From NCBI GenBank assembly GCA_034430395.1, contig DAOUEQ010000090.1, positions 4,781-68,780 of the forward strand: a DNA stretch of 64,000 bases, written 5' to 3'. Below the pieces are notes generated by a model that searched no databases, was not told the DNA's origin, and saw only the letters and a program-made list of their open reading frames with translations. This DNA comes from Anaerolineales bacterium. GTDB taxonomy: Bacteria > Chloroflexota > Anaerolineae > Anaerolineales > E44-bin32. A program made the translations under genes and the position numbers. Below, in pieces: positions 3,460 through 20,072 of this stretch (its first letter is position 1; each line of letters opens with the position of its first letter).

Positions 3460-3475
3460 TGGCATAGTTCTTGCA
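3460..3475 (+). promoter_or_regulatory. sigma54 -24/-12 promoter upstream of rpoN
   Basis: TGGCAT-AGTTC-TTGCA matches consensus TGGCAC-N5-TTGC with exact GG-N10-GC spacing; intergenic, 52 nt before the rpoN ATG. Confidence 0.8.
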
Positions 3476-3527
3476 ACATAATTGCCAGCAATGTCCAGTC
3501 GATGTATACTCACCCGAGAGGCGCACT

Positions 3528-4943
3528 ATGTTCCGTCAGATCCAAGACCAATCTCTTAGACCACTCACGACAGCTCACCTTGCTCAAACGATGAGCCTTC
3601 TTGTTTTATCCAATCAGGAGCTGCACGATCGAGTGATCACAGAACTTGCATCGAATCCTGCGTTGGAGCTTCTTGACGAGCGCATCTGCCCGGGATGCCA
3701 TAAGCCCCTAAGCAATGCCGGACCCTGCCCCGTATGCAGCCGGCAGGCTGAAGGCGAAGAACCAATTGTATTTCTCTCCCCTCGGGATTCCTACCGACCA
3801 TCCAGAAAAAGAACACTTGATGATCAACCGCTGGAGCAAGAACCCGCAGCCCCAGAGGATCTCTCAATTTTCGTCATGCGGCAACTTGCCGCGGAACTTA
3901 AAGAGGAAGATCGGCACATTGCAGTTTACGTCCTTGACAGCCTTGATGAAGATGGCTTCCTGACCAGCCCCCCGCCCTACATCGCACAAGCCACTCGTTC
4001 CAATCTACCTCAGGTTATGAGGGTCATCGACTTGATACGTAAAGCGGACCCCGTCGGTTTGGCAACTAATGGTCCTCGAGAAACGCTTCTCGTTCAACTC
4101 GATCAGTTAGGTGATGGCGGAGAACCGCGCTGCGAATTGGCACGCCGATTACTGAGGGAATCCTTTGCGGAACTCGGTCGTAAAGAATTCGACAAGATCG
4201 CTCACAACTTCGAAGTCAGCCCTGCTGCAGTAAGAGAAGCCGCCACATTCATTCACGACAACCTAAACCCTTACCCCGCGCGAGCGTACTGGGGATCCGG
4301 ACGACAGCCGCAATCTGGCGACTCGAATGTTTACCACACCCCTGACGTCATGATCTCACGCAACCCCTCTGATGAATCTGGGCCACTGATGGTTGAAATA
4401 TTCTCGTCGATTTCGGGCTGGCTTCGGGTGAACCCTCTTTTCCGGCAAGCCATGAGGGAAGCGGATGAAGAGCAGAGCGATGAGTGGTCTGAGCATATGG
4501 AAAAGGCGAATCTCTTTGTGAAATGCATTCAGCAGCGCAATAACACAATGCAACGCCTGATGGGCTTGCTAGTATCACAGCAGAGTAGTTTTATTTTAGA
4601 AGGCGCTCGCCACCTCATACCCATGACGCGAGCCCAAATTGCAGAAGAGATCGGCGTCCACGAATCCACGATCTCAAGAGCAGTAGCGAATAAATCAGTC
4701 GCAATGCCCAATGGCAGAATAATTCCTCTTGCTAAATTCTTTGACCGCAGTCTCTCGGTGCGTGATCGTATCATAGAGATCGTCGAAAATGAAACCAAAC
4801 CACTTACAGACGATGAGATCGCCTCGCTTTTACACGAGGAAGGGATTAAGATAGCACGTAGGACTGTCGCGAAATACCGTGCGGTTGAGAATATTCTACC
4901 AGCTCGGTTGCGGGGTGCAAGAAAACTATCGCAGGCAGCCTAA
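3528..4943 (+). CDS. rpoN: RNA polymerase sigma-54 factor
   Basis: Region I LAQTMSLLVLSNQEL..ELASNPALE, HTH HESTISRAVANK, RpoN box ARRTVAKYR. ATG 3528 has a GAGAGG RBS; the track start 3471 lies inside the promoter. Confidence 0.95.
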   Translation: MFRQIQDQSLRPLTTAHLAQTMSLLVLSNQELHDRVITELASNPALELLDERICPGCHKPLSNAGPCPVCSRQAEGEEPIVFLSPRDSYRPSRKRTLDDQPLEQEPAAPEDLSIFVMRQLAAELKEEDRHIAVYVLDSLDEDGFLTSPPPYIAQATRSNLPQVMRVIDLIRKADPVGLATNGPRETLLVQLDQLGDGGEPRCELARRLLRESFAELGRKEFDKIAHNFEVSPAAVREAATFIHDNLNPYPARAYWGSGRQPQSGDSNVYHTPDVMISRNPSDESGPLMVEIFSSISGWLRVNPLFRQAMREADEEQSDEWSEHMEKANLFVKCIQQRNNTMQRLMGLLVSQQSSFILEGARHLIPMTRAQIAEEIGVHESTISRAVANKSVAMPNGRIIPLAKFFDRSLSVRDRIIEIVENETKPLTDDEIASLLHEEGIKIARRTVAKYRAVENILPARLRGARKLSQAA

Positions 4944-4953
4944 GGTGTAATCT

Positions 4954-6930
4954 TTGGCAAAGGATACTTCACCCACCAATCCGATCTCACGTTTATTTAA
5001 GGCTGACCCCTACCGCGAGCTTTTCCTCTCCCTCGCTGATACTCTAGACAACTCCGTCCTGGTATTATCCGGGGCGGAATCGCGTCTACTCACGTGCAAC
5101 CATGAATTCCTGCTTCTCTCCGGTTACGCCCGAAAGGATCTCGACGACCTAAACCCATCCGCCCTTTTTCCCGGCGAAGAGGGTCACGTTATGCTCAAGA
5201 AGATCCTTGACACATGGGAGAACCCAGACTGCACACTACAAGATGTTCCACTGCAGACACGCACAGGGGAAGTCGTCCTCATTGATCTTGAAGCACACCC
5301 GATCGCTCCTCCCCGAACAGCTGTCCTTCTTCTGATAAAACCCGCGAGTGCTCGCTCACAAATAGAGCAGCGTAAACTTGCTGAAGAGACTCTCTTACGC
5401 AGCTTGGAGAACATTACAAACTTGATGCTGATGGGAGGCACCTCCGCGGTGCCAACAGCACTCGAGCTCTGTCTTGAACCACTCTTCGCGTCATACACCG
5501 CAATATATAGGCTTTCGGCAAACTCGCCTGATTACTTTATCGAAGGTACGCTGCCCCCCGAATTCCCAGAAACGATCCCTGCCGACGCAATCGGCAATTT
5601 ACAGGTATTTTCCTCTTGGAGCCTGGGCCAACGCCCTGAGGGCGAATTACAGCGTGCCGCGAGAACCGCAGAACTCACCCACTTGAAGACTGCACTGATT
5701 GGTGATGATTCCGCTTGGATCGGCATTTTCATCGTCGGCTGGAAAGAGGAGATCGCGCTAAGTCCCGACATCGATCCGCTGATCCGCATCATCGCCAACC
5801 TCCTCCACACTGCCATCTACCTGAGCCAGCTTCGAGCCACCCTCACCGAAGGTGATACCTCCATGAACGAGCTTGAGGCGGAGATCACAAGCCAATTCGA
5901 GGCCATTTCCGATGTTCTGATAACTGTGGACTCTTCGCTCACTATAACAAGAGCGAATTCGGCGATAAACCGCCTGCTCGGTTATCACCCACCCGAAGTA
6001 ATAGGTCTTGCGATCCAGGATGTCCTTGTAGGTCCCGAGGATGTGACAACCACGATCCTTGACGCGCTGGGACACAAGCGCACGGCAGAACGCTCAAGAC
6101 TCATACTCCACCACCGTGATGGCACGCGCCTGCCAGTCCATTTACGGGTTGCTCCTCTGGCTGGAGCTGCAGACGGTCAATTTCTCATCGCCCTAGGTGA
6201 TCAATCCGAACAGCAAGCAATTGAAGATCAAACAGAAATCCTGGCCCAGAGAGCCTTGCTCGGCGAAGTCACCGCGATTTTCGCTCACGAAGTGAGGAAT
6301 CCCATCAACAACATATCCACCGGGGTCCAGCTTGTAGCCTCGCGCCTCGGTGAAAATCACCCACAATTCGAGGCGCTGGGCCGCATCCGGGCGGAGTGTG
6401 TTCGCCTCGATCAACTCATGAGCGACGTGCTCTTCTTTGCCCGCCCACTTCAACTGAAGATGGACCCTCTAGATCTCGCTGAGCTCCTTCAGAGAGTGAT
6501 TACTAGATGGGCGCCTCGCTTTAATCAAACCGGCACTCACTGCCATACTTCATACGATCCTGATACACCTCTCGCATCGGTGGATCCGAGGACACTTGAG
6601 CGAGTCATCGTAAACCTAGTCAGTAATGCTCTTGAAGCCATGACTGAAGGCGGCACACTCTCAATTAGTCTTGCACCAATAGGTCCTGCCCAAGATTGCA
6701 TGATCGAGTTGAAGGTCGCGGATACCGGCCCAGGCATCCCCCCTGATAAGATCCACCGGATATTTGATCCCTTTTTCACTACGAAAAAGGACGGGACAGG
6801 TCTCGGGTTAGCGATTAGCCGACGCATAATAACAGCACATAAAGGGACAATTCAGGTCGAGAGCTTTCCTGATGCAGGTACTGTGTTTACAATTCACCTC
6901 CCATCTGCGGACCTTAGTTCCAAGGAGTGA
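4954..6930 (+). CDS. Cytoplasmic PAS-domain sensor histidine kinase (NtrB-like)
   Basis: Two PAS-like segments; H-box FAHEVRNPINNI, N-box NLVSNALEAM, DTGPGI, FDPFFTTKKDGTGLGL; no obvious TM helix. Confidence 0.9.
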   Translation: MAKDTSPTNPISRLFKADPYRELFLSLADTLDNSVLVLSGAESRLLTCNHEFLLLSGYARKDLDDLNPSALFPGEEGHVMLKKILDTWENPDCTLQDVPLQTRTGEVVLIDLEAHPIAPPRTAVLLLIKPASARSQIEQRKLAEETLLRSLENITNLMLMGGTSAVPTALELCLEPLFASYTAIYRLSANSPDYFIEGTLPPEFPETIPADAIGNLQVFSSWSLGQRPEGELQRAARTAELTHLKTALIGDDSAWIGIFIVGWKEEIALSPDIDPLIRIIANLLHTAIYLSQLRATLTEGDTSMNELEAEITSQFEAISDVLITVDSSLTITRANSAINRLLGYHPPEVIGLAIQDVLVGPEDVTTTILDALGHKRTAERSRLILHHRDGTRLPVHLRVAPLAGAADGQFLIALGDQSEQQAIEDQTEILAQRALLGEVTAIFAHEVRNPINNISTGVQLVASRLGENHPQFEALGRIRAECVRLDQLMSDVLFFARPLQLKMDPLDLAELLQRVITRWAPRFNQTGTHCHTSYDPDTPLASVDPRTLERVIVNLVSNALEAMTEGGTLSISLAPIGPAQDCMIELKVADTGPGIPPDKIHRIFDPFFTTKKDGTGLGLAISRRIITAHKGTIQVESFPDAGTVFTIHLPSADLSSKE

Positions 6931-6933
6931 TGA

Positions 6934-8109
6934 ATGACCGCAACGGTATTGATCGTTGACGACGAAGAGACCGCCCGCAACTTCATCAGCGAAGCGTTGA
7001 CGGATGCTGGCTTTGAAGCAATCGAAGCGGGGACTCTGGCGGAAGCAAATAAAGCGATCGACAAGGGTGTAGGGGATATCATCCTGCTCGACGTTATGCT
7101 CCCTGATGGATCCGGTTTATCTTTGCTTGACCGCCTCGCCCTTGAAAATCCCCGACCACCAGTGATCTTGATCACTGCTTTTGGAGAGATTGATACAGCG
7201 GTCGATGCGATGAAGAAAGGTGCTCTAGATTTCCTACAAAAGCCCCTTGATCTAGATCGCTTGCTTCAAGCTATAGAGCGATCATCAGAGGTTGTGGGAC
7301 TGCGTCGGGAGCTTGATCTCCTGCGTCGGACTTCAATTTTGGAAACGGAGATGGTCATTGGTGAGACACAGATCATGAAGCAGATCATGCACGAAGCCGA
7401 ACGCGCGGCCCAAGCATCAGTCTCTGTCATGATCACAGGTGAAACCGGGACCGGCAAGGAAGTCCTCGCTCGGTCGATACACAGCTTCGGGCCACGTGCA
7501 GATACGCCTTTTATCCCGATTAACTGTGCTGCGCTGCCGGATACGATGATCGAATCGGAGCTTTTTGGACATGAAGCAGGAGCCTTCACCGGCGCGCAAA
7601 AAAAGAAGCCGGGATTGATCGAGATTGCCGACGGCGGCATCCTCTTCCTGGACGAAATCTCCTCAACTAAGCAGGAAATGCAAGCCAAGCTGCTGCGAGT
7701 CTTGGATGAGCAAAAATTCAGACGAGTTGGCGGAGTAAATGAAATTGGCGTTGACGTTCAAATCATCGCCGCTTCGAATCGGAACCTCCCGGTCATGATC
7801 GAGGAGGGAACCTTCAGAGAGGACCTCTACTATCGGCTGAAGGTAGTCGATCTTCACCTCCCGCCTCTTCGTGAACGAATTGTTGATCTCCCAGCGCTTA
7901 CAGGCAACTTCATCCGCCAAATCAACCTCCGTGTTGGCGGCATCGTAGAGGGAATCACACCGCGCGCACTTGACGCACTTAAAGCTCACTCATGGCCCGG
8001 TAACATCCGTGAACTCCGTCACGTGGTCGAGAGAGCAATTCTATTTTGCGACGAGGAAAACATCGATCTCGCTCATCTCCCCCCTGACATACAAGATCTC
8101 GCTTCCTGA
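6934..8109 (+). CDS. sigma54-dependent response regulator (receiver + AAA+ bEBP), no C-terminal HTH
   Basis: Receiver VLIVDDE / LLDVMLPD / KP; Walker A GETGTGKE, GAFTGA, Walker B LFLDEI, REDLYYRL, WPGNIREL. Ends 391 aa right after the AAA+ domain. Confidence 0.92.
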   Translation: MTATVLIVDDEETARNFISEALTDAGFEAIEAGTLAEANKAIDKGVGDIILLDVMLPDGSGLSLLDRLALENPRPPVILITAFGEIDTAVDAMKKGALDFLQKPLDLDRLLQAIERSSEVVGLRRELDLLRRTSILETEMVIGETQIMKQIMHEAERAAQASVSVMITGETGTGKEVLARSIHSFGPRADTPFIPINCAALPDTMIESELFGHEAGAFTGAQKKKPGLIEIADGGILFLDEISSTKQEMQAKLLRVLDEQKFRRVGGVNEIGVDVQIIAASNRNLPVMIEEGTFREDLYYRLKVVDLHLPPLRERIVDLPALTGNFIRQINLRVGGIVEGITPRALDALKAHSWPGNIRELRHVVERAILFCDEENIDLAHLPPDIQDLAS

Positions 8110-8115
8110 ACTCTT

Positions 8116-8131
8116 TGGCACGCTACTTGCA
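8116..8131 (+). promoter_or_regulatory. sigma54 -24/-12 promoter
   Basis: TGGCAC-GCTAC-TTGCA, perfect consensus, in the 57-nt gap before the GGAGG RBS and ATG 8167. Confidence 0.88.
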
Positions 8132-8166: not shown

Positions 8167-8499
8167 ATGATTCCCCTTACATTTGGCGATGTTCAAATCC
8201 TCATAGCTGCAACCATCTTCATCTTGGGCTCCTTATTGGTACTCATCGGGGCTTTGGTTTTAGTCAGCCGAGGCTATTCCCGAGAGGTGCGGGCCTTGGC
8301 GGCTCATACCGCTAGGCTTGGCCAGAAAGGTATTGCCCAAGAGGTAACAGGACTTGTTAACAGTGCCACAGAGCTCGTCGCTTCTCTCAATAGTCTGGTT
8401 CGGACCGCAAGCGGGATAGGGATCATACTGATCTCAGTTGGATTAGGCTTGTTGTACGCAGGCTATTGGATCATTCAGCAAATCAGCTGGCCAATCTAA
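8167..8499 (+). CDS. Small two-TM membrane protein, unknown function
   Basis: Strong GGAGG RBS; two hydrophobic segments flanking an Ala/Leu-rich helical linker. Confidence 0.75.
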   Translation: MIPLTFGDVQILIAATIFILGSLLVLIGALVLVSRGYSREVRALAAHTARLGQKGIAQEVTGLVNSATELVASLNSLVRTASGIGIILISVGLGLLYAGYWIIQQISWPI

Positions 8500-8516
8500 C
8501 CGACTGGATGGGTACT

Positions 8517-11500
8517 ATGCTCAATGACGCGGAAATATTGCAGTATTTAAGCCGGGTCCTGAACGAAGACGATCTCTCCAGCGCAATTAGACGGATCCTG
8601 TATGTGCCAGAGGCGTGGAGCGAGGTTCACAAAAGCGAATTCCTCACCCTGGCTCTGGAGAAGATCGATCGCGCTGGTTGGTCCCCCGCCACTCTCGCTT
8701 CTCTAGCCCTCGGACAATCATCGTTATCTAAGGCGTTGGATTCTCTCTCCTCTGAGCAAGAGAGTCGCATCGCCCATTTACTGGAATTGGATGGTGCTGC
8801 GGAGAACAAGAACCTTGTGGATACCGCACTCCTCTCTGTCACACTTCTGAGAATCGAGACCGATGAAGGGCCAGGTGGGCTGACTGAAACGATACTAAGA
8901 AGCACAGATTTCTGGGCTTCGGCACTTTGCTGCGCGTGGCCATATCTCGAATTTGGGCAAGAAATAATCAATGCACTTATCCGAGAAGGAAGTCAAGCTG
9001 CCATAGCGCTTGTCATACAAATATTGCACGCGAACATGGATGTCAACCGTGCTGTTGAGATTCTTTCAAATCTTGACCATGAATCGACTCAGCGGGTATT
9101 GATCAGTTTAAACCTCAGGCACGAGGATGAGTTGTTCCTGGCTCTTTCAGAATCGATCCGTGATGACCTTCACCCTAATCCAGTAGATGGTCACCAAGAT
9201 CCGAGCGACCTTTCAGAACAGGCAATCATTCTTGCCGCATCAGGGAATTCCGCTGATGCGCAAAAACTCGTCTCTCAAGCCTGGGACCGAACCACATTGA
9301 TCTCAGCGGAGGTCGCCGATCGTTTGGCTGATATTGCCAAAATGGATAATGACCCGGTTCTTGAAGTGGAAGCGCGCAAGCAAGCGCTGCAATTAAAACT
9401 CTCGCCGCGACGGCGCGCCGAACTGGCGAAAGCTTACGTTCAAATAGATCGCCATCAAGATGCCCTCGATCTACTCCAAGAACCCGCGACGGCAGAGGAA
9501 TATATCGCCGCAGGACAAGCTCATCTACTTTCAAACGAGTCTGCGATTGCAGCGGATTGCTTTATTCAAGCCTATCAACACTCACTCAATGCACCTGCGC
9601 TAGAATCCACATGGATGGACTTGCTCTCCCGTGGACTTGAGGCTTCGGGTAAGTATCGCCAGGCGGTCCAGGTCCTCGAGATCCTTTCTGCACTAAAACC
9701 AACCGATGCAGAACTACGACATAATCTAGCCACGTTGCTCGAGAAGGCTGGTGATCCTGATACGGCAGCGGAGCAAGCGGCGTTCGCACTCACGCTGATG
9801 CCGAAATCGCTGCAATTACGCGAAATCTTAGCCCGTAACTTGCAGAAATCCGGCCGCCCAGAACAGGCTATCGCACATTGGCAAGCAATCACCCTGCATG
9901 AGAAACAAGCGCTTGCGAAGTTATGCGCCTGTGCGCTAGAAGCCGGGGATTACACTTTAGCGAAGCAAAGCGCGGAGGAACTCCGCTCAGAAAATCCTGA
10001 GTCAGTGGAAGCCCAAGTCCTTTTGGGAAAAGCTCTTTCTGCCTTGGGAGAGCATCAAGAGGCTGAAGCTCACTTAAAGAAAGTCACACAACTAACCCCT
10101 GCGGATGCCGATGCATGGATTGCTCTTTCGGAATGCCAGCTGTCGACAGGCGGTGAAAATGCTGCCGACAAGACATTAAATGCCGCTCTCGAAGCCTTAC
10201 CAGCGAGCGGAATCATTCATGTCGCGAAGGCAAACTCGCTCCGCAGCAAATCGATGCCAAACGAAGCACTCGAGCATATGCAGAAAGCCGTAGATCTTGA
10301 TCCCGAGAGCGCAGCTTGGCTTGTTGATTATGGGGATCTGCTCAGGGAGCTCGGTCGCATAGAAGAAGCAACGCCAATCCTGCAGTCTGCCCTAGATAAG
10401 CAGCCTGAAAACTGGAAGGCTCGCGAAGCATTAGCTCTCACCTTCGAGAGCCAGGGCGAAATGGCTTCGGCTGCAGAGCTTATCGACAACCTCCCCAGGA
10501 ATCTCGACCCAGATTCACTTTGGAACGCAGGTCGAATTCTCGTCCAGACGCCTTCCGAAAAAGAAGATTCCAAGCTTGTAATTGGTGTAAAGACCCTTGA
10601 AAAGGCCCGTGAGGTTGGATGTGACGACATAGCCATCGATTACTGGATCGCCCATGGCCTTCACCGCCAAGATCTTAACGAGGAAGCCATCAATTATTAC
10701 CAGACCTTCCTGAACAATTCTGAGGAGTCTCCCTGTGAGGCATATCTTCAAGGCGTGCTAGGTCTGGCGGATGCTGCCATCGCAATGGACGACGCACCTT
10801 TGGCAATTGAAACGATGGAGAAGCACCGCGGTCAGTACCCGACTTCACTCGAACTGCTCACCCTTCTGGCGAAAGCACATATGTCTAATAATGACTTCAG
10901 CGTAGCGAAGAATCTCGCTCGCCAGGCTTTCGAGCGAAACCCGATCGAGACTGAAGCACTCTCCATATTAAGCATAGCTGCAGAAGCAGATGGCTCGCTG
11001 GATGAAGCCATCGCCTCACGCAAACAACTCGCCAATCTCCAACCAGAGCAGCCAATGCCCTGGCTAGAACTCGCCCGGCTGACATGGCTCACCGGGAACA
11101 AGGACGCAAGCCGCAACCATTTGGCACGCGGCCTCTCCCTGGGCCGAAGGGATAAGCTAATCCTGCAAAAAGCTGCCACCCTATGCGGCGAGTTCAAATT
11201 CCACCCTTTGCAATTACGATTGCTCCAGAGCGCTTCATCCCTCGATGAGCATGACCCTGACATTCATCAGGAATTGGCACTTGCCGCTGAAAATATCGGT
11301 GATTTTGAACGGGCACAGCGGGCGTGGATGCATATCGCAGATCTTCTTCCAAACGACACTCACCCTCTTGACCGTGCCGCGGATGCACTCTGGAAACTGG
11401 ATAAGAGAACCGCCGCAATTGGCTTGTGGGAACAAGCTACGCAGATCGACTCGGAGAACGCACTGCACTTTACCGCGCTCGGACGAGCTTATATGCAGAT

Positions 11501-13655
11501 TGGGGAGATACAGCGCAGTCTCAACTGCTTTGGTCATGCCCTGGCACTTCAACCGGACGATCCAGCTTTCCTCATCGAAGCCGGTTCAGCAATGACATAT
11601 TCAGGCTCGCTTGAGGAAGGTTTGGGTGTACTACAGAAGGCAGTATCCATCGTGCCGAACGATCCCGTCCCGCTGATTGCTCTCGCCGAAACGCTCCACC
11701 TGCTCGGACGGAATACAGATGCCCGTGCGGCTTTGGATCGTGCGGCGATACTTGCGCCCCTCTCCCTGAAAGGTTTCGCCTTACAGGTCATCACATCTTT
11801 AGAGACAGGAGAACTTGAAAAAGCAAAGGATGCATTCGCCTCGGCTTCCAATTCAGAACCTGAGAATTTAAGCGATGTTCTATGGTCTACACGCAGCGCA
11901 GTGGCACTCGCCGACTGGGTCGCCGCTATTAACAGCATCGAAGAATGGATGGGTACCGTTAAGGACAATCCGGAAGCGGAACTTGAATATCTCCGCGGCC
12001 AGCTTCGGCTGCAGGACTTGCTTTGGGTGTACCGCACAGCGTGCGAGGCAGAGTCACATGCCCCTTCACAGGTTGATTTATCAGGAGAGAAAAAGAACTA
12101 TCTCCGACAGATGATCGATCAATTTAGGTCAGCCAGCTCCAATGAATCGATTGGCGAATTACTCCAGACGTGGTTTGAACTCACCACAGGTGCGAAGGCT
12201 CCTGATGAATGGAAGGTATCTCATAACACACCCCAGCACATCCTTCATGAATTCACCCAGGCGTTTGCCATCGCTCAAATTCGGGCGAACCGGCCAGGGA
12301 AAGCCGAGAATGCTCTCCTGCAAGACAATGGTCCAGGCTATAAGGACCCCTATCACGGTCTCCTACTCGGCATCAGTCGGATGATGCTCGGGAGATTTGA
12401 GGAGGCGCAAGAGAACCTTCAACAGGCTCATGGTAATCCTATGATTCGCCCGCTCGCACTTTTCCTAGAGGCTCAGTTATGGCTGAAAGCGGATGACAAT
12501 GAGAAGGCGATAACAGCGCTCAACAGCGCACTTTCGATCTGGCCCGATGAACCCTCCTGGCATGCCAAGCTCGCTTATCTTTACCAGGAAAACAACAAGC
12601 AGGAAGCAGCGTTACCCCACTGGCAGAATGCCGTTGAACTCGAACCCGAGAACGGGGAGTACCTAACTTCGCTTGCTCGTATCTACCGTGAAGCAGGTCA
12701 ATTGACGGACGCTCAAGCCACATACGCAAAAAGCCTGCAAACGTCATCCGTCACACCCAAAGTCTGGAAGGAGGCTGGCGAGGTCGCCCTTGCAATCGGA
12801 GATGCCGACAAAGCCGAAGCCTGGTTTGAGAGAGCTTGCTCCTTAATGCCCTCTGATGTTGGTGTGATGATCGGATCGTCACAAGCCGCTATGGCCCTTG
12901 GCAATGTGAAACTTGCGCTCGAGCATGCCCGCAAAGCTTATCGACTTGCTCCGAACAACGTGGAAGTCCTCACTGGATTAGGTGACGTTTTCGCTCATCA
13001 AGGTAGGCTTGATAAAGCCATCCAGATTTACGACCGTGCGTTACGCGTCTCCGAAGACGACAAAGCTGTCCAATTAGCCCGCAGTAAACTCCTGCTTCGA
13101 TTAGGGCGAACCGAGGAGGCCGTTGCCGACCTCCGGGTTCTCACGGAGGCAGAATCTGATTTCGAGGACGCGTGGGCTGTTCTTTCCGATGCATACTCTT
13201 CGACCGGCGACAATGATGCTGCTCTCGAAGCTGCCAGCCAGGCGGCGAAACTTGCTCCTCGCAATGTGGAGTACCAACTCCTTCTTGGACGGAAGTTCAA
13301 AGAGTCCGGTCAACTTGACCAGGCGCTTAGCGTATTAACGAAGGCTTCTTCTCTTGCACCCGTTGACGCTCGTATTGCCCGGGAGCTTGGCGATGTCCAT
13401 AAGGCTCGCCGGCAGGATACACAGGCTCTAAATGCTTATCTGCATGCGATTACACTCGACCCAAAGGAAGCGGCAGCCTACAAACAAGCAGGGCTGATCC
13501 TGAAGGTCTTGAAGTCATACCGACAGGCAGCGGATATGTTTGAAAAAGTTGTTTCGATAAATCCCTTGGACCCAGACGCGCTCCATCAGCTTGCTGCTGT
13601 ACGTGCGCTGCAATTAGTCCATGGCGGTATGGAAGAGCAGGCGGTGACCCTATGA
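8517..13655 (+). CDS. Very large TPR-repeat protein (~1700 aa)
   Basis: Dozens of helical repeats with TPR signatures (e.g. AWIALSECQL, WLVDYGDLLRELG, VLTGLGDVFAHQG, AYKQAGLILK). Start 8508 or 8517 uncertain; stop overlaps the next ATG (ATGA). Confidence 0.85.
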   Translation: MLNDAEILQYLSRVLNEDDLSSAIRRILYVPEAWSEVHKSEFLTLALEKIDRAGWSPATLASLALGQSSLSKALDSLSSEQESRIAHLLELDGAAENKNLVDTALLSVTLLRIETDEGPGGLTETILRSTDFWASALCCAWPYLEFGQEIINALIREGSQAAIALVIQILHANMDVNRAVEILSNLDHESTQRVLISLNLRHEDELFLALSESIRDDLHPNPVDGHQDPSDLSEQAIILAASGNSADAQKLVSQAWDRTTLISAEVADRLADIAKMDNDPVLEVEARKQALQLKLSPRRRAELAKAYVQIDRHQDALDLLQEPATAEEYIAAGQAHLLSNESAIAADCFIQAYQHSLNAPALESTWMDLLSRGLEASGKYRQAVQVLEILSALKPTDAELRHNLATLLEKAGDPDTAAEQAAFALTLMPKSLQLREILARNLQKSGRPEQAIAHWQAITLHEKQALAKLCACALEAGDYTLAKQSAEELRSENPESVEAQVLLGKALSALGEHQEAEAHLKKVTQLTPADADAWIALSECQLSTGGENAADKTLNAALEALPASGIIHVAKANSLRSKSMPNEALEHMQKAVDLDPESAAWLVDYGDLLRELGRIEEATPILQSALDKQPENWKAREALALTFESQGEMASAAELIDNLPRNLDPDSLWNAGRILVQTPSEKEDSKLVIGVKTLEKAREVGCDDIAIDYWIAHGLHRQDLNEEAINYYQTFLNNSEESPCEAYLQGVLGLADAAIAMDDAPLAIETMEKHRGQYPTSLELLTLLAKAHMSNNDFSVAKNLARQAFERNPIETEALSILSIAAEADGSLDEAIASRKQLANLQPEQPMPWLELARLTWLTGNKDASRNHLARGLSLGRRDKLILQKAATLCGEFKFHPLQLRLLQSASSLDEHDPDIHQELALAAENIGDFERAQRAWMHIADLLPNDTHPLDRAADALWKLDKRTAAIGLWEQATQIDSENALHFTALGRAYMQIGEIQRSLNCFGHALALQPDDPAFLIEAGSAMTYSGSLEEGLGVLQKAVSIVPNDPVPLIALAETLHLLGRNTDARAALDRAAILAPLSLKGFALQVITSLETGELEKAKDAFASASNSEPENLSDVLWSTRSAVALADWVAAINSIEEWMGTVKDNPEAELEYLRGQLRLQDLLWVYRTACEAESHAPSQVDLSGEKKNYLRQMIDQFRSASSNESIGELLQTWFELTTGAKAPDEWKVSHNTPQHILHEFTQAFAIAQIRANRPGKAENALLQDNGPGYKDPYHGLLLGISRMMLGRFEEAQENLQQAHGNPMIRPLALFLEAQLWLKADDNEKAITALNSALSIWPDEPSWHAKLAYLYQENNKQEAALPHWQNAVELEPENGEYLTSLARIYREAGQLTDAQATYAKSLQTSSVTPKVWKEAGEVALAIGDADKAEAWFERACSLMPSDVGVMIGSSQAAMALGNVKLALEHARKAYRLAPNNVEVLTGLGDVFAHQGRLDKAIQIYDRALRVSEDDKAVQLARSKLLLRLGRTEEAVADLRVLTEAESDFEDAWAVLSDAYSSTGDNDAALEAASQAAKLAPRNVEYQLLLGRKFKESGQLDQALSVLTKASSLAPVDARIARELGDVHKARRQDTQALNAYLHAITLDPKEAAAYKQAGLILKVLKSYRQAADMFEKVVSINPLDPDALHQLAAVRALQLVHGGMEEQAVTL

Positions 13656-16309
13656 TCAATCGAGATAACGTCATTCACCTCTTAGATACAGCGTTTCTCG
13701 CTGGGCGTGCTGATTACGTCAAGCATACAGCGAATGATTGGCTATCGGTATGGCCAGGCGATCTCGATATCCAGCTCATGCTCGCACGAGCGGAGATGGA
13801 GCTTGGTCAATTCCGTGAAGTAATCCAACGCTTGAATTCCGTCCTTTCAACCGACCCGGAATGTGTCAAAGGCTACGAATTAATGGCTAGTTCTTTGCGC
13901 ACGATCGGCGAGGTTGTAAGAGCGCGAATTTATGAAGCTTGTGCTAAGGCCCTCAAAGGTGAGGAGCTGAATTCACAGGATGCCCCAGCCTGGGTTATCC
14001 AGATCCAGTTAGCAATGAAATCCCTTGCCCGAGGAAATGTCCAGACAGCTATTACCGCAGCTCAAGTGGCTCTCACGACCGATCCTGATCTTGCGCTGCC
14101 TACCCTCGTTGCCCTTAATGCATCCAGAGCAGCAGGAAATCAGTCGGCTGTTTCTTCACTAGCAAGAACGGGTCATGAGCGGTGGCCGAATTGTGTCCTT
14201 TTCTTACTAACTTTAGCAAAGGATCTCTTACAAGAAGATAAAGTTGACGAAGGGGTCGCCTACCTTCATCAAGCGGTCAGCCACGATGCAAGCGGCAGGC
14301 TCGCGATGGACGTTCTGGGGAGCGATCATCCTTATCGCAATCTGTGGCCCGAAGAACAAGCGGCAGATTTGAGCAGGCCTATTCCCGCTGATGTAGCTGC
14401 AATCCTTGGCGACAACCGCCTCTCTAGTTCCACAGGTACCGACAAGAAACCTGTTGATGGCATCTCAAATAACGCGCATGACACACGCTCAGTCGAGTCT
14501 ACAATGGACACTAACGAGGAGCCCGCCCTCAAGTCCGAGCCGTCCGAAAACTCCATGCCAGAACCCGAACCATGGGAATCGTTCAGGGGACCTAATCCCG
14601 GGGATATTCGCGAGAGTGTCGAAAAGCCATTCTCCGAAGAGAGTTTGATAGAAATAGAGCAGGATTTCCGTCGGCTCGCTAGCCGCTTGAAATCTCGGCA
14701 GCGAGCACGAGATGAAGACGGGCGCTCACCAGTCTATGTTGTGCTTTCAAGCCATACACGCTTGCAGCAGAGTTACGGTGAAGATGGCTATTTGAGGGTG
14801 AACGATGCAGTTCTCTCTCTGGTAGAAGCGATCCGCCGCCGCTCAGGATGGTCAGCCTACCGTATCTACCCCGACGACCCGAGCACTCTCGACCCATTCG
14901 ATATCTCCCCCTGCGATCCGGGAAATGCATGGGAGATAAAACTCCGTATTGCCGATCTCGATCAATCCCTTGCCAAGCGCGGGGAGATGATCGGGGCTGT
15001 GCTGATCGTCGGCGGTCACGGGACCGTCCCATTCCACCTACTGCCCAATCCCACAGACGACGATGACGAGGTAGTTCCGTCAGACAATCCCTACGCTGCA
15101 ACGGACGAAAATTATTTTGCCCCAGAATGGCCTGTTGGACGCATTCCATTCGATCATGACCTCGACCAACTCGTAACACAATTGGAACGGTCGACCCAAG
15201 ATCACCGTCAGCTGAACCGCTCAATGGGTTTAGTGCAGCGTTTCAACCTCTGGCTTTTCCGCAGATTCACACGGCTATTCAGCGGTAACAAGAGGGTTCT
15301 TGGGTACACCGCAAGCATTTGGCGAAAAGCATCGTTTTCGGTCTTTAAAACGATCGGCGATCCTCGTACGATGATCACATCACCACCAACTGAAGCGGAC
15401 CGGCTGCCATCCGTTGCCATGCGGCCGGCGCGCCTCTCTTATTACAACCTCCATGGTTTGGAGGATGCACCTGAATGGTATGGCCAGCGTGATCCAGTTC
15501 GCGATGATAGCGCCTTGAGAGAGTTCCCTATCGCACTGCGCCCACAAGATGTCGTGAACAGCGGCCGAGCTCCCAAAGTCGTTTTCACTGAAGCATGCTA
15601 TGGGGCAAACTCCATGTCGAAAACCCCAGAATCTGCGCTCAGCCTTAAGTTCCTTTCATCAGGCAGCCGGGCAATTGTAGGTTCGACAAAGATATCCTAT
15701 GGTTCGATCACCCCCCCACTGATCGCTGCCGATCTACTCGGTCGGATATTCTGGCTGAACCTCAATCAGAAGTTGCCTGTCGGGGAGGCGTTACGACGCG
15801 CTAAATTGAAGCTCGCTACCGAGATGCACAACAGGCAAGGTTTCCTCGACGGTGAAGACCAGAAGACTTTGATTTCATTCGTCCTATATGGCGACCCACT
15901 ATTCACCCCTTCAGATATTGCGCCGATGCCGGGCGAGAAATCCGTCATCCGTAGGCGCACCAGACCCAGATTGATGAAAACGGTCTGTGCCCTGGGTGGA
16001 TCTGATGTCTCACCTGACAAATTGAAACCGAGCACCCTTAGGAAAGTCAAGCTCATCGTTTCTCAATATCTTCCGGGTATGCAGGAAGCTACGTGTAAGA
16101 TCCATCCCCAGCATTTCTATTGCTCGGGCGAGGATCATAATTGCCCTACCATGCATATGGGTGCAAAATCTCACGCTTCCTCCGATAGCGGATCGACCAT
16201 CATCACGCTCTCTAAGCACATCCCCGATGGCGAGCGCAACCACCCTCATTTTGCCCGCATCACGCTAGACGCGTCCGGTAAAGTGACCAAGCTGGCGGTC
16301 TCTCGCTAA
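13652..16309 (+). CDS. TPR + clan CD cysteine peptidase (gingipain/C25-like) with small C-terminal domain
   Basis: C25-like motifs VLIVGG..VPF, SDNPYA, PEWPVGRIP; catalytic dyad candidates NLH601G and EAC649YG; terminal GEALRRAK..FVLYGDP. Confidence 0.8.
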   Translation: MINRDNVIHLLDTAFLAGRADYVKHTANDWLSVWPGDLDIQLMLARAEMELGQFREVIQRLNSVLSTDPECVKGYELMASSLRTIGEVVRARIYEACAKALKGEELNSQDAPAWVIQIQLAMKSLARGNVQTAITAAQVALTTDPDLALPTLVALNASRAAGNQSAVSSLARTGHERWPNCVLFLLTLAKDLLQEDKVDEGVAYLHQAVSHDASGRLAMDVLGSDHPYRNLWPEEQAADLSRPIPADVAAILGDNRLSSSTGTDKKPVDGISNNAHDTRSVESTMDTNEEPALKSEPSENSMPEPEPWESFRGPNPGDIRESVEKPFSEESLIEIEQDFRRLASRLKSRQRARDEDGRSPVYVVLSSHTRLQQSYGEDGYLRVNDAVLSLVEAIRRRSGWSAYRIYPDDPSTLDPFDISPCDPGNAWEIKLRIADLDQSLAKRGEMIGAVLIVGGHGTVPFHLLPNPTDDDDEVVPSDNPYAATDENYFAPEWPVGRIPFDHDLDQLVTQLERSTQDHRQLNRSMGLVQRFNLWLFRRFTRLFSGNKRVLGYTASIWRKASFSVFKTIGDPRTMITSPPTEADRLPSVAMRPARLSYYNLHGLEDAPEWYGQRDPVRDDSALREFPIALRPQDVVNSGRAPKVVFTEACYGANSMSKTPESALSLKFLSSGSRAIVGSTKISYGSITPPLIAADLLGRIFWLNLNQKLPVGEALRRAKLKLATEMHNRQGFLDGEDQKTLISFVLYGDPLFTPSDIAPMPGEKSVIRRRTRPRLMKTVCALGGSDVSPDKLKPSTLRKVKLIVSQYLPGMQEATCKIHPQHFYCSGEDHNCPTMHMGAKSHASSDSGSTIITLSKHIPDGERNHPHFARITLDASGKVTKLAVSR

Positions 16310-16328
16310 CATCACGATCCTGGAGATA

Positions 16329-16344
16329 TGGCACGCTTCTTGCA
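16329..16344 (+). promoter_or_regulatory. sigma54 -24/-12 promoter
   Basis: TGGCAC-GCTTC-TTGCA, perfect consensus, intergenic, 30 nt before ATG 16375. Confidence 0.88.
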
Positions 16345-16374
16345 CCTATCTGTGCAGGAAGGAAGCAAAGTGCC

Positions 16375-17670
16375 ATGTCTCAAGGATTTGATCGACTCGG
16401 ATTTCATTATTATCACGACCAGGACCATTACACCCAAGCGGATCTTGACCGCTGGCTGCCAATTTTCCAATCTATCCAAACGAAATGGCTCACACTGAGT
16501 GGATCTTGTTCACTAGCCATCCCCGAGTTCTTCCTGCGCAAACTGATCGAGGCGGATATCAAGCCGATCATTCACCTCGAGGCATCAATCGACCAACTCA
16601 ATGTTCGCTCGCTCAGACCACTTTTCGCTAATTACACGGATTGCGGCATCAAGCACATCGTTCTCCATGACCGCCCGAATATGCGTACGCAGTGGGATCC
16701 CTCGAGCTGGTCTCGTGGTGATCTGGTCGAGCGATTCATCGACCACCTGATCCCCTTACTTGAGTTTCAAACCGAATATGGTCTAAAGCCAATTTTCCCT
16801 CCTCTAGAACCCGGTGGCGATTATTGGGATACCGCATTTCTTCGAACAGCGCTTGGATCCCTCCAGCGCAGAGGGAAAGGTGAATTGCTAAAGGACCTCA
16901 CGTTAGGTCTCTACCAATGGAGCTATGGGAAACCGCTTGATTGGGGAGCTGGAGGCCCAGAAGTCTGGACCTGCGCACAACCATACAACACCCCCACTGA
17001 CAGCCAGGACCATCGGGGTTTTCGAATAACCGAATGGTATTCCGCAATCTGCCGCGAGGTTGTCGGAATTGAACTGCCAATGTTAATACTCGCTGGCGGA
17101 ATTTCCCCTCAGACGCAGGTTGGAAGAACGGGAATAAAACCAGATCTTGATGCAATCACTGAAATTCTTGAGCACGCCAGGTGTGATGACCACCCCGGTC
17201 TGGTACTCAACCTCGCTCTAGACCCACATACGGTTTCCGAAGGGCTGCGAGATAGCTGGGAAGCCATCATTGAAAAACCATCGCCCTCAAGGCGAATAAA
17301 GGCTAAGGTAAAGAAACTGTTTGCTGGTGAAGAAACGAGCACAACAAACGCTACTCATAAGAAAATCATCTCACATTACGTGCTTCTCCCGATGTCAAAT
17401 CACCGCAACTTAACCCAGGATTGGGTAAATGTAGGACCCTTTGCGTTAGCCGTGAAACCAGTTGTTGGTTTCTCTGTGGGAGAAGCCCAATTCGCCGAAC
17501 GAGTGACGATCATCGGCCACGAGACGGATATTCCTGCTGCTATCGAAGACCAACTGCGCAGTGCCGGTTGTGATGTCAACCGCCTCCGAATGGCAGATGC
17601 GTCAGAGCTTCTTGTTATGGCGGCCGAACTAGCTTCAAAGAACCTCACTTCTGGAGTTGTCAATGCCTGA
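16375..17670 (+). CDS. Degenerate glycoside-hydrolase-like (clan GH-A TIM barrel) protein with small C-terminal alpha/beta domain
   Basis: IVLHDRPN aligns by eye to the V-x-x-NEPN motif and LPMLILAGG to LP-x-x-xTE-x-G; family assignment by pattern only. Confidence 0.5.
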   Translation: MSQGFDRLGFHYYHDQDHYTQADLDRWLPIFQSIQTKWLTLSGSCSLAIPEFFLRKLIEADIKPIIHLEASIDQLNVRSLRPLFANYTDCGIKHIVLHDRPNMRTQWDPSSWSRGDLVERFIDHLIPLLEFQTEYGLKPIFPPLEPGGDYWDTAFLRTALGSLQRRGKGELLKDLTLGLYQWSYGKPLDWGAGGPEVWTCAQPYNTPTDSQDHRGFRITEWYSAICREVVGIELPMLILAGGISPQTQVGRTGIKPDLDAITEILEHARCDDHPGLVLNLALDPHTVSEGLRDSWEAIIEKPSPSRRIKAKVKKLFAGEETSTTNATHKKIISHYVLLPMSNHRNLTQDWVNVGPFALAVKPVVGFSVGEAQFAERVTIIGHETDIPAAIEDQLRSAGCDVNRLRMADASELLVMAAELASKNLTSGVVNA

Positions 17671-18790
17671 TGCAAATTCCCTCGAGTACTTACAGCATCT
17701 CTCCCAACCCGAACATCCGCGGCAATTAGGAGAAGCCAAAGTCAAAGTCCTAGGCCTGGGTGGAGGAGGGTCGAACGCCGTCAATCGTATGATCGAGTTA
17801 GGGGTGATGGGCGTCGAGTTCATCGCCGCCAACACTGACCAGCAAGCACTAGCTTCCAGTCTTGCACCTACCCGCATTCAACTTGGACCACGGATCACTC
17901 GCGGTCTGGGAGCAGGTGGTGACCCAAAGATCGGCGCATCAGCAGCGATGGAAAGCAGCCGTGAGATCGCCGCGGTTCTTGCAGGAGCCGACATGGTCTT
18001 CATCACCGCAGGCATGGGTGGTGGTACAGGAACTGGAGCAGCTCCTGTCGCGGCCGAGATCGCGCGGGAGATCGGCGCAGTTGTTATCGCAGTTGTTACC
18101 ATGCCTTTTAGTTTCGAGATGAGCAAGCGCTCCCAGAATGCCCTGGAAGGTGTCCGTCTAATACAACCGCATACGAATACGCTGATTACCGTGCCAAATG
18201 ATCGCTTGTTGCAAGTCGTTCCCCGGGATCTAAGCCTGGAGGTCGCCTTTCGTATTGCGGATGATGTTCTGCGCCAGGGAGTCCAGGGGATCGCCGAATT
18301 GATCACCCGTCCCGGCTTGATCAACGTAGATTTCGCACATGTGCGCGAGATTATGACCCGCGGAGGTGGCGCCTATATGGCCATCGGGTTAGGGGAAGGT
18401 GAAGAGAAAGCGCCCGCGGCGATTAAGCAAGCGCTGCACCACCCACTGTTAGAGATCGACGGCCTCGATAGCGCCTCGGGTGTTCTCGTGCACTTCACAG
18501 GAGGCGAGGACCTCACGCTCTACGAAGTTGGAGAAGCCGTAAACGAGCTGCGCAATGTGACCACACCTGATATCGACATCATTCTCGGTGCCACGACGGA
18601 TCCAGCGATGACGGGCCGGGCGCAAGTCATTTTAATCTTCACCGGTGTGGGAGGCTGCCCAGTTGCTGCCACACAGGGGATTGATGAAATTGCAATCGCA
18701 TCTTCATCTCAGGTCAAAAGTAATCAGATAGAGGATCTCGACCTACCAACTTTTCTAAGAAGGCGCGCCGCTGTCGGCTCAAGGAGCTAA
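17663..18790 (+). CDS. ftsZ: FtsZ-family tubulin-like GTPase (paralogue outside a dcw cluster)
   Basis: GLGGGGSNAVNRM, ANTD, AGMGGGTGTG, T7 loop GLINVDFAHV, C-terminal peptide DLDLPTFLRR. ATG 17663 with GGAG RBS. Confidence 0.93.
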   Translation: MPDANSLEYLQHLSQPEHPRQLGEAKVKVLGLGGGGSNAVNRMIELGVMGVEFIAANTDQQALASSLAPTRIQLGPRITRGLGAGGDPKIGASAAMESSREIAAVLAGADMVFITAGMGGGTGTGAAPVAAEIAREIGAVVIAVVTMPFSFEMSKRSQNALEGVRLIQPHTNTLITVPNDRLLQVVPRDLSLEVAFRIADDVLRQGVQGIAELITRPGLINVDFAHVREIMTRGGGAYMAIGLGEGEEKAPAAIKQALHHPLLEIDGLDSASGVLVHFTGGEDLTLYEVGEAVNELRNVTTPDIDIILGATTDPAMTGRAQVILIFTGVGGCPVAATQGIDEIAIASSSQVKSNQIEDLDLPTFLRRRAAVGSRS

Positions 18791-18796
18791 CAAACT

Positions 18797-19027
18797 GTGG
18801 ATCAGGCAACGATAAAGAAACTCACCCGCGCCGTCGGGAAAAAGTTCCCCGAGATGGACCGAGTTAGACCTTCGGTAAGCAAGCAAGCCAGCAGGGAGGG
18901 GAATGTACAATTTTTGTTGACCTACAAGGGGAAGGCTGAACTGCCAGGGGGTCGTAAGATCAGCCGCATTGTTCGCGTCGTCGCCGATGAGCGGGGACGG
19001 ATCATAAAGATGAGTACATCAAAATAG
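18797..19027 (+). CDS. 76-aa basic protein homologous to the C-terminal domain of the upstream protease
   Basis: AAGGAG RBS, GTG start; pairwise similarity to the last ~95 aa of 13652..16309 (see findings). Confidence 0.8.
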   Translation: MDQATIKKLTRAVGKKFPEMDRVRPSVSKQASREGNVQFLLTYKGKAELPGGRKISRIVRVVADERGRIIKMSTSK

Positions 19028-19029
19028 CC

Positions 19030-19233
19030 ATGGACGAATATCTGATCAACCTCAACTCGTATGCAAAACTCGCTTTTTGGAAAGTTGCCGCTAGCCTTAC
19101 CGGAGCCGCGGTACGCAACCAACGACTCTTTAACCGCGTCTTATGGGTCGCGCCCATCGTTCTCGCCGCGGTCCTTGCCTATATGTTTGGCAGGTTGTTT
19201 GGCACAATTCTCCTATTGGGATTAGCAGCATAA
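19030..19233 (+). CDS. 67-aa small membrane protein
   Basis: 2 nt after the previous stop; hydrophobic C-terminal half; followed by a terminator. Confidence 0.6.
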   Translation: MDEYLINLNSYAKLAFWKVAASLTGAAVRNQRLFNRVLWVAPIVLAAVLAYMFGRLFGTILLLGLAA

Positions 19234-19319: not shown

Positions 19320-20072
19320 ATGCGAAGTCGATTGCCAGTTGTACTCTTTGTTCTTATGATGTTGGTCTGCTTCGCAGCAGGCGCTATTAGCGTGCTCCTT
19401 CAAGGTGAAGAACAAGATAAGAGCCCTCAAAAAACACCTTTCACATCGATTGAAATCGCACCCACCACACCTATCCGCAGTGAAGCCGTCTCCATTCTCG
19501 TGCTGGGAGTAGATGAAATCAAACAGGATAAGCCGGACCTTCTTTCCATCTGGTTCATAAGTTTCCACCCCCCTGATAAAAAGATACGTCTCCTGGGGTT
19601 GCCTTCGGACCTCCTTCTTCCGAACACCGAAATCCCTCTTAGCGAGGCTTTCTCCCTTTGGGAAGCTCCGGATTACGGGGCCGATTTCATCACCGCGATG
19701 GACCACTTCTCCCCTCATCCCATCTTCGGCATTGCCGTTCTAGATGAGGAGGGTTTCAGTGCTTTAATCGATTACCTGGGCGGCTTCTCCCTCGACGATC
19801 AGACATACGATGGCGCTTCAGCGATTGGCACGCTTCGCTTGCTTGAAGACCAACCACTTGTCGCTCTAAAGCTGCAAGCCCAAATCCTGCGCGCACTGAG
19901 CGTGAAAGTTCCGGACCTTGGTGAAACACCCGAGCTCACACAACTCACGCTCCTTCTACCGGAGAACGCGTACACATCCCCTTCACCAGCACAATTGGCG
20001 ACACTCGCCAGCCCCCTGCTCCCGTTGCAGGCGGATCTCATTGAGATCACTATTTTGGAGACCACACCTTGA
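19320..20072 (+). CDS. Degenerate LytR-CpsA-Psr (LCP) family protein
   Basis: N-terminal TM, then SILVLGVD, IRLLGLPSD, GFSALIDYLGG; canonical Arg residues absent. Confidence 0.65.
   Translation: MRSRLPVVLFVLMMLVCFAAGAISVLLQGEEQDKSPQKTPFTSIEIAPTTPIRSEAVSILVLGVDEIKQDKPDLLSIWFISFHPPDKKIRLLGLPSDLLLPNTEIPLSEAFSLWEAPDYGADFITAMDHFSPHPIFGIAVLDEEGFSALIDYLGGFSLDDQTYDGASAIGTLRLLEDQPLVALKLQAQILRALSVKVPDLGETPELTQLTLLLPENAYTSPSPAQLATLASPLLPLQADLIEITILETTP

Follow-up and report, generated by a model that had tools for sequence, protein, structure and literature searches.

In a 64-kb stretch of an Anaerolineales bacterium genome (contig DAOUEQ010000090.1; these 64,000 nucleotides are the window, and all features below lie on its plus strand), a basic protein of 76 amino acids (aa) encoded directly behind ftsZ is a free-standing paralogue of the C-terminal tail of a protease encoded just upstream, and the two belong to one previously unnamed domain family. 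The protease is the product of an 885-aa open reading frame (ORF; 13652..16309) that comprises an N-terminal tetratricopeptide repeat (TPR) region, a Peptidase_C25-like core of clan CD and a C-terminal alpha+beta4 domain. It closes operon 1, which also encodes a 110-aa putative membrane protein and a giant TPR protein. The tethered copy of the domain was delimited by hhalign, an AlphaFold2 (AF2) model and invariant residues to 16022..16306 (protease residues 791-885), position 16022 being codon 791 of the protease and the start of the proposed domain. Operon 2 encodes a 431-aa protein, FtsZ, the 76-aa small protein and a 67-aa membrane protein, and therefore holds the free copy. The 76-aa ORF (18797..19027) has a GTG start, begins 6 nt past the ftsZ stop and encodes a protein with an isoelectric point (pI) of about 11.

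The 76-aa protein is almost certainly homologous to the C-terminal ~95 residues of the protease, and we regard this homology as established from the profile comparisons. An earlier note on this DNA had proposed the relationship from a manual alignment. Identity between the two is only ~20%, with most positions differing, and BLASTP between the two window proteins gave nothing significant (E=2.2, in another register). Smith-Waterman alignment of the 76-aa protein with the tail alone scored 40, which was equalled by 1 of 1000 shuffles. Because the pairwise BLASTP match is not significant, the case rests on profiles. The HHalign check suggested in the earlier note was run with an alignment of 50 small proteins (A1) and one of 30 protease tails (A2), which matched with Prob 74.7% and P=2.6e-5 over columns 2-78 and 22-116, respectively. 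This match spans the whole small protein with one ~20-residue insertion on the protease side and reproduces the register of the manual alignment. A local hhalign run gave P=7.6e-6. The observed score of 31.3 was far above those of the controls, which reached at most 15.4 in 60 column-shuffles of A2 and 12.0 for the reversed alignment. With a more diverse small-protein alignment of 62 sequences (A4), the match rose to Prob 96.4% and P=1.2e-9, a figure that is partly circular since A4 was picked with the merged profile.

Further comparisons agreed with this. A hidden Markov model (HMM) of the small family aligned, without any shift of register, to the final ~100 residues of full-length proteases. 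Small proteins were picked up by the tail HMM at 17-22 bits, and MAFFT by itself aligned both families as hhalign did. A bridge between the families is provided by the tail of a distant protease (P0290), which the window small protein matched by BLASTP at E=2e-7 with 34% identity over 58 residues, both sequences aligning up to the C-terminus. A free-standing intermediate (P0232) ends in KLAVSK, as the tails do. Across both families P18, G67 and S75 are invariant and V13, M20, T42, R60 and D64 nearly so; in the tethered copy Y806, L807, P808, G809, R869, T871, G876, K880 and S884 are invariant. The common ending of Ser, then Arg or Lys, then stop, to which the earlier note had drawn attention, extends beyond the window, as the last residue is Lys, Arg or His in 133/135 small proteins and 166/166 proteases. 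That the similarity is due to chance or composition, or that the 76-aa ORF is not a gene, is effectively refuted and has a negligible probability in our view: the non-significant pairwise BLASTP would fit chance, but the profile-profile P values with clean shuffle controls and the bridging match do not, and the ORF is kept in 77 genome loci and hundreds of clusters, with a confidently modelled product.

The AF2 model of the small family has a predicted local distance difference test score (pLDDT) of 91.7 and consists of a helix (3-16) followed by strands at 26-31, 37-48, 54-64 and 69-74. That of the protease tail (pLDDT 78) has a helix at 20-33 and strands at 41-47, 75-86, 89-99 and 105-111, with a low-confidence loop at 48-74. 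Both models run through helix, strand, variable loop and three further strands in turn, in agreement with the hhalign register, and the domain is modelled as a four-stranded meander sheet against which a helix from the N-terminus packs. A significant profile alignment and an equal element order are the opposite of the outcome that the earlier note had named as fatal to its proposal. The copies differ in the loop between strands 1 and 2, where the tethered copy has a Cys/His-rich insertion (16112..16192, protease residues ~821-847). In the small proteins the loop at this place is variable and rich in Ser, Lys, Ala and Gly. Within the protease insert, C51, H56, C58 and P59 of A2 are nearly invariant, and some distant tail-type sequences lack the Cys/His motif. 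The loop pattern C..H..Q...C.G.DH.CP, together with an invariant H864 in an 'HPH' stretch, was seen in the tethered copy only. Judging from this pattern, the Cys/His loop may be a lineage-specific elaboration, possibly metal-binding.

Foldseek searches of the PDB with both models gave no match below E 0.05 among the 50 matches listed for each. NTF2-like alpha+beta proteins, which include the C-terminal domain of the orange carotenoid protein, were among the best non-significant matches of both models, but with E values of 0.05 or worse, TM-scores of at most 0.48 and partial coverage, which points to a resemblance in sheet-plus-helix packing and not to membership. PepSY was a candidate suggested by the '...D..G+v.K' ending; across 50 members, the Pfam scan (E<=10) returned no PepSY match and a single marginal one to an FTP propeptide (E 0.15), nor was PepSY among the 50 Foldseek matches listed for either model. 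SepF, ZapA, Hfq/Sm-like and other known small folds were also rejected, with no Foldseek PDB match at E<0.05 and no sequence relative in the PDB.

For the small protein, 86 close homologues were retrieved. Almost all measure 71-85 aa and a few calls run to as many as 111 aa; those with a named organism are from Anaerolineales or Anaerolineae. The protease has >1000 homologues, and the tail is strongly conserved in all 120 listed, with the consensus ...IVxQYLPGM..C.IH.Q..C.G.DH.CP...VVTLSK....HPHFARLTLD..GKV.KLAVSR-stop. An exhaustive search of 1.84 billion representative proteins with the merged-alignment profile (E<=1e-3) retrieved 730 clusters, and the recovered genomes are Anaerolineales-type Chloroflexota. 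Among the best 150 of the 730 clusters only two architectures occur, either free-standing (71-92 aa) or at the extreme C-terminus of this protease family. All of these best 150 that exceed 140 aa are homologues or fragments of the same protease, the rest being short free-standing or tail-type proteins, and the domain closes the protein in nearly all of them, a few ending one residue earlier. The 76-aa protein matched no Pfam or NCBIfam family and the merged profile found no sequence relative in the PDB. The domain thus has no name in the libraries that were searched, and the earlier note's description of it as small, alpha/beta, unnamed and used in tethered as well as free form stands.

A genome scan with A1 recovered 77 loci of 20 kb, nearly all of which are labelled Anaerolineales, Anaerolineae or Chloroflexota. 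The order giant TPR protein, protease, 431-aa homologue, FtsZ and small protein was found in every locus with enough upstream DNA, and the small gene directly follows ftsZ in all loci, distant lineages included. Downstream of the cluster are amino-acid ATP-binding cassette (ABC) transporter genes, plsX and a ketoacyl-synthase gene. One locus (L013, JAIWHF010000034.1) is binned as 'Methanosarcinales archaeon'; it contains the whole cluster with a small protein 83% identical to that of the window, and is probably a binning error. An apparent exception lacking the upstream cluster (L038, CP070708.1, an Anaerolineaceae 'chromosome') was set aside because a run of N inside ftsZ (9630-9730), beyond which the upstream sequence is unrelated, points to a scaffold mis-join there.

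FtsZ of operon 2 (377-aa ORF, 17657..18790, with a probable start at the ATG at 17663) is canonical. It scores 378 bits against TIGR00065, for which the equivalog cut-off is 295.2, as well as 155 bits for Pfam Tubulin and 84 bits for FtsZ_C, and it matches FtsZ chains in the PDB at 1e-91. Its C-terminal region has the canonical docking peptide DLPTFLRRR. The earlier note had called it an FtsZ paralogue, a label that these scores, both Pfam domains and the peptide do not bear out. No second ftsZ was found among those ORFs of at least 150 aa in the window that were annotated. The 431-aa ORF (16375..17670), whose stop overlaps the ftsZ start, has no assigned family and its product had no Pfam, NCBIfam or PDB match. 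A homologue lies ahead of FtsZ in each locus with sufficient flank, and the 431-aa protein is a candidate lineage-specific FtsZ partner.

Three nucleotides beyond the stop of the 76-aa gene begins the gene for the 67-aa hydrophobic protein (19030..19233), which matched no family in Pfam or NCBIfam. Homologues were found in many related loci by tblastn, and ORFs of 62-76 aa occupy the equivalent position in loci L001, L003 and L088. The gene junctions of operon 2 either overlap or are 3-6 nt apart, which suggests from the gene arrangement that the small protein is co-translated with FtsZ. Next is a gene for a 250-aa protein (19320..20072) with an N-terminal hydrophobic segment, whose membership of operon 2 is uncertain. 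Its only match was a sub-threshold one of TagU/LytR type (E 0.0088), and it is present downstream in most, though not all, related loci.

In the protease, Pfam Peptidase_C25 (PF01364) matched residues 642-751 with 40.7 bits against a cut-off of 23, covering model positions 264-372 of 374 only, i.e. the C-terminal third. The protein also has TPR_14 and TPR_19 matches. H601-G602 and A648-C649 are invariant in sets of 120 and 24 homologues; they follow the motif pattern of clan CD and are the putative catalytic dyad. A profile of the entire protease family, run against the PDB in order to align this dyad with a gingipain, returned TPR proteins only. Because the putative dyad motifs are invariant, it is plausible that the protein is an active protease, and likely a cytoplasmic one, no obvious signal peptide being visible by eye.

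The first gene of operon 1 (8167..8499) encodes the 110-aa protein, which has hydrophobic stretches at its N- and C-termini and looks like a two-helix membrane protein. ORFs of 107-111 aa take its place in L082-L085. The giant TPR protein (8466..13655) has up to 1729 aa and matches 35 TPR-type Pfam families. The TTG start of the ORF call at 8466 falls inside the 110-aa gene, which ends at 8499, and translation more probably begins with the ATG near 8508; this is favoured because the giant protein in L082 begins past the stop of its 110-aa-type gene.

The two operons share a promoter type. Just two perfect matches to the sigma-54 -24/-12 consensus (TGGCAC-N5-TTGCA) occur in the 64 kb, at 8116 and 16329, both intergenic and on the plus strand. 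Promoter P1 (8116..8131, TGGCACGCTACTTGCA) is upstream of the 110-aa gene and promoter P2 (16329..16344, TGGCACGCTTCTTGCA) is ~31 nt ahead of the 431-aa gene. Upstream of the 431-aa gene, GGCA[CT]N5TTGC was found in 60/66 distinct related loci compared to 3/1320 shuffles, mostly 28-34 nt before the start codon, and a P1 equivalent precedes the 108-111-aa ORF in L082, L083 and L084. The claim of the earlier note that the two copies sit under separate sigma-54 promoters is thus upheld by perfect matches conserved in relatives, and the assignment of P1 and P2 as sigma-54-type promoters is supported at the sequence level. P2 is also part of an inverted repeat (ATGGCAC ... GTGCCAT, 16328-16376), in which its -24 element forms one arm and the second arm shares bases with the 431-aa gene's start codon. 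The same repeat is present in the close relatives L005-L014.

Upstream of operon 1 are the genes for sigma-54 (rpoN, 3471..4943; Pfam Sigma54_AID, Sigma54_CBD and Sigma54_DBD), a PAS sensor histidine kinase (4954..6930; PAS, HisKA and HATPase_c) and a sigma-54 activator (6934..8109; Response_reg, Sigma54_activat and AAA_lid_14). The activator matches reach residue 388 of 391, and the Pfam scan matched no helix-turn-helix or other DNA-binding domain in its 391 residues. Both the window and three other lineages have the set of 107-111-aa ORF, activator, PAS kinase and rpoN ahead of the giant TPR gene. rpoN is in the equivalent position in L082 and L084, and the histidine kinase is conserved upstream of the cluster. 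In L083 (1449-4371) two further genes, for an Rce1-like membrane protease and for a WD40 beta-propeller protein of 640 aa, separate the activator from the 111-aa gene. The ftsZ gene appears to stand behind a sigma-54 promoter and beside rpoN, a PAS kinase and an activator in an arrangement that is conserved across Anaerolineales. We know of no precedent for a sigma-54-controlled ftsZ.

We tentatively favour a reading, held at somewhat less than an even chance, in which the domain is a shared docking module and the free copy made with FtsZ competes with or gates the protease. The conserved polar residues T42, R60, K71 and S75 (T852, R869, K880 and S884 in the protease) would mark a binding surface; strand alternation would place them on the face of the sheet away from the helix. 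This surface would serve one common partner in the division machinery, most likely FtsZ, which is acidic with a pI of 5.0. The strongly basic free copy would be made together with FtsZ from tightly packed, probably translationally coupled genes, and by occupying the docking site of the protease it would compete with the protease for the FtsZ assembly or gate its approach. How much free copy and how much protease is made would be set by the sigma-54 two-component system. Counting for this reading are the homology, the equal element order of the AF2 models, the two C-terminal architectures and the basic last residue, together with the placement of the small gene after ftsZ, the tight junctions, the opposite pI values, the co-variation with FtsZ described below, the invariant dyad motifs and the conserved sigma-54 promoters and regulators.

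Co-variation of evolutionary distances was assessed by mirror-tree analysis of 53 loci, controlling for five other locus proteins. Distances of the small protein co-varied with those of FtsZ (partial r 0.24, permutation p 0.001) and weakly with those of the protease core (partial r 0.15, p 0.017), and did not co-vary with those of the tail (partial r -0.10, p 0.9). The last of these values bears on a homotypic adaptor model, in which the two copies would associate through their sheets and the small protein would bring the TPR-protease to FtsZ or cap the protease tail. It is common for homologous domains to associate with one another or with their own kind, and throughout the Anaerolineales core the two copies are inherited together as neighbours. 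This arrangement is nevertheless quite improbable given the missing co-variation between small protein and tail and the separation of the two operons in some lineages. A direct partnership of small protein and tail is thus not favoured by the little evidence that distance co-variation offers.

The co-variation with the protease core is relevant to another explanation, by which the domain is a product-mimic plug whose C-terminal Arg or Lys would fill the S1 pocket of this C25-type enzyme. Auto-inhibition by the tethered copy would then act in cis or from one subunit to another, and the free copy would inhibit in trans and shield the proteins of the FtsZ operon. Characterised C25 peptidases (gingipains) cleave after Arg or Lys, and the position of the domain at the very C-terminus in nearly all of the best 150 hits, with a basic last residue in nearly all members, would suit such a plug, as would the weak co-variation with the catalytic region. 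However, only two residues extend beyond the last AF2 strand, leaving little length with which to enter an active site, and the C25 model was matched in its C-terminal third only. We therefore consider a plug unlikely, and return to the docking module as the preferred reading.

Several observations weigh against docking. The mirror-tree signal is weak and confounded by phylogeny, FtsZ also being the best proxy for the species tree. R60-D64, T42 and S75 could be purely structural, and we know of no substrate for the protease. Furthermore, the operons are unlinked in two distant lineages. In the P0288 lineage (L084, 12651 onward) the block from rpoN to the protease is followed by alaS, and in the P0233 lineage (L090, 7494-10264) the trio of 426-aa protein, FtsZ and small protein lies among housekeeping genes with no TPR or protease gene upstream, and the motif upstream of this unlinked trio is degenerate (TGGAAT-N5-TTGAA). 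The earlier note had taken the homology to tie the two operons into one system, which holds for the Anaerolineales core, where they are adjacent wherever upstream DNA suffices, and fails in these two lineages. Since the operons are unlinked there, each copy may serve its own operon independently.

Such independent paralogues would be a generic basic binding module, for nucleic acid or an acidic membrane, for example, with each copy working for its own operon without cross-talk. Both copies are basic (median pI 10.7 for the small family and 9.2 for the tails), the operons are separable, and the small protein and the tail have diverged at most positions. A generic module would not be expected to show only two architectures among the best 150 of 730 clusters, and both copies stand behind the same promoter type and beside the same regulators. 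On balance independence of the two copies seems doubtful, and the shared docking module remains our working choice.

A wider proposal is offered as speculation of low probability: Anaerolineales division would be under a sigma-54 two-component switch that co-induces FtsZ and a cytoplasmic TPR-caspase-like protease aimed at the division machinery, and a small decoy made with FtsZ would copy the docking or plug domain of the protease and set when and where the protease acts. If true, this decoy would represent protease/anti-protease control of the Z-ring, based on a previously undescribed domain.

What lies at this locus is a real, conserved and unnamed domain with two architectures in a sigma-54-linked FtsZ cluster of Anaerolineales, for which we infer a role. 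To our knowledge, the division proteins of Chloroflexota have barely been studied, and full-text literature searches found nothing on this cluster. The present analysis defines a conserved gene set around Anaerolineales FtsZ, consisting of the 431-aa protein, the small alpha+beta4 protein and the small membrane protein, and links this set to a giant TPR protein and a caspase-like protease through a common unnamed domain and promoter type. It adds a new domain family of 730 clusters for databases and a candidate new FtsZ regulator, with possible proteolytic control of division. If either the decoy or the plug idea is true, it would be a new way of controlling FtsZ.

The combination of TPR and caspase-like protease led us to consider an NTP (nucleoside triphosphate)-dependent conflict system. 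It was rejected, as FtsZ is canonical, the cluster is conserved in the recovered loci and plsX, ABC-transporter and ketoacyl-synthase genes follow downstream; FtsZ/tubulin effectors are mentioned only as rare in such systems (PMC7159879). In other respects the locus resembles known systems in part. PepSY/FTP propeptides and the C-terminal prodomain of legumain are likewise small protease-attached domains that are able to regulate and also exist free, although the searches described above gave no PepSY match and the single FTP match at E 0.15 in 50 members. SepF, ZapA and MciZ are small FtsZ-associated proteins encoded near ftsZ. Like them, the 76-aa protein is short and soluble and comes from an ftsZ operon, so that it should be produced along with FtsZ, and the FtsZ of the window has the usual C-terminal docking peptide. 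They differ in having no sequence match to the small protein in Pfam, NCBIfam or PDB searches and in being absent from the 50 listed Foldseek PDB matches, all with E >= 0.05. None of the three is known to us to have a paralogue fused to a protease.

The protease itself resembles two kinds of enzyme, gingipains of family C25 and the TPR-CHAT/Csx29 'Craspase'. Gingipains are secreted, whereas the window protease has no signal peptide discernible by eye, and there are no CRISPR genes nearby. Its C-terminal alpha+beta4 domain lies outside both families. The likeness is in the rest of the protein: an N-terminal TPR array is followed by a caspase-fold protease whose His-Gly and Ala-Cys motifs would be its dyad, and the Pfam Peptidase_C25 score exceeds its cut-off.

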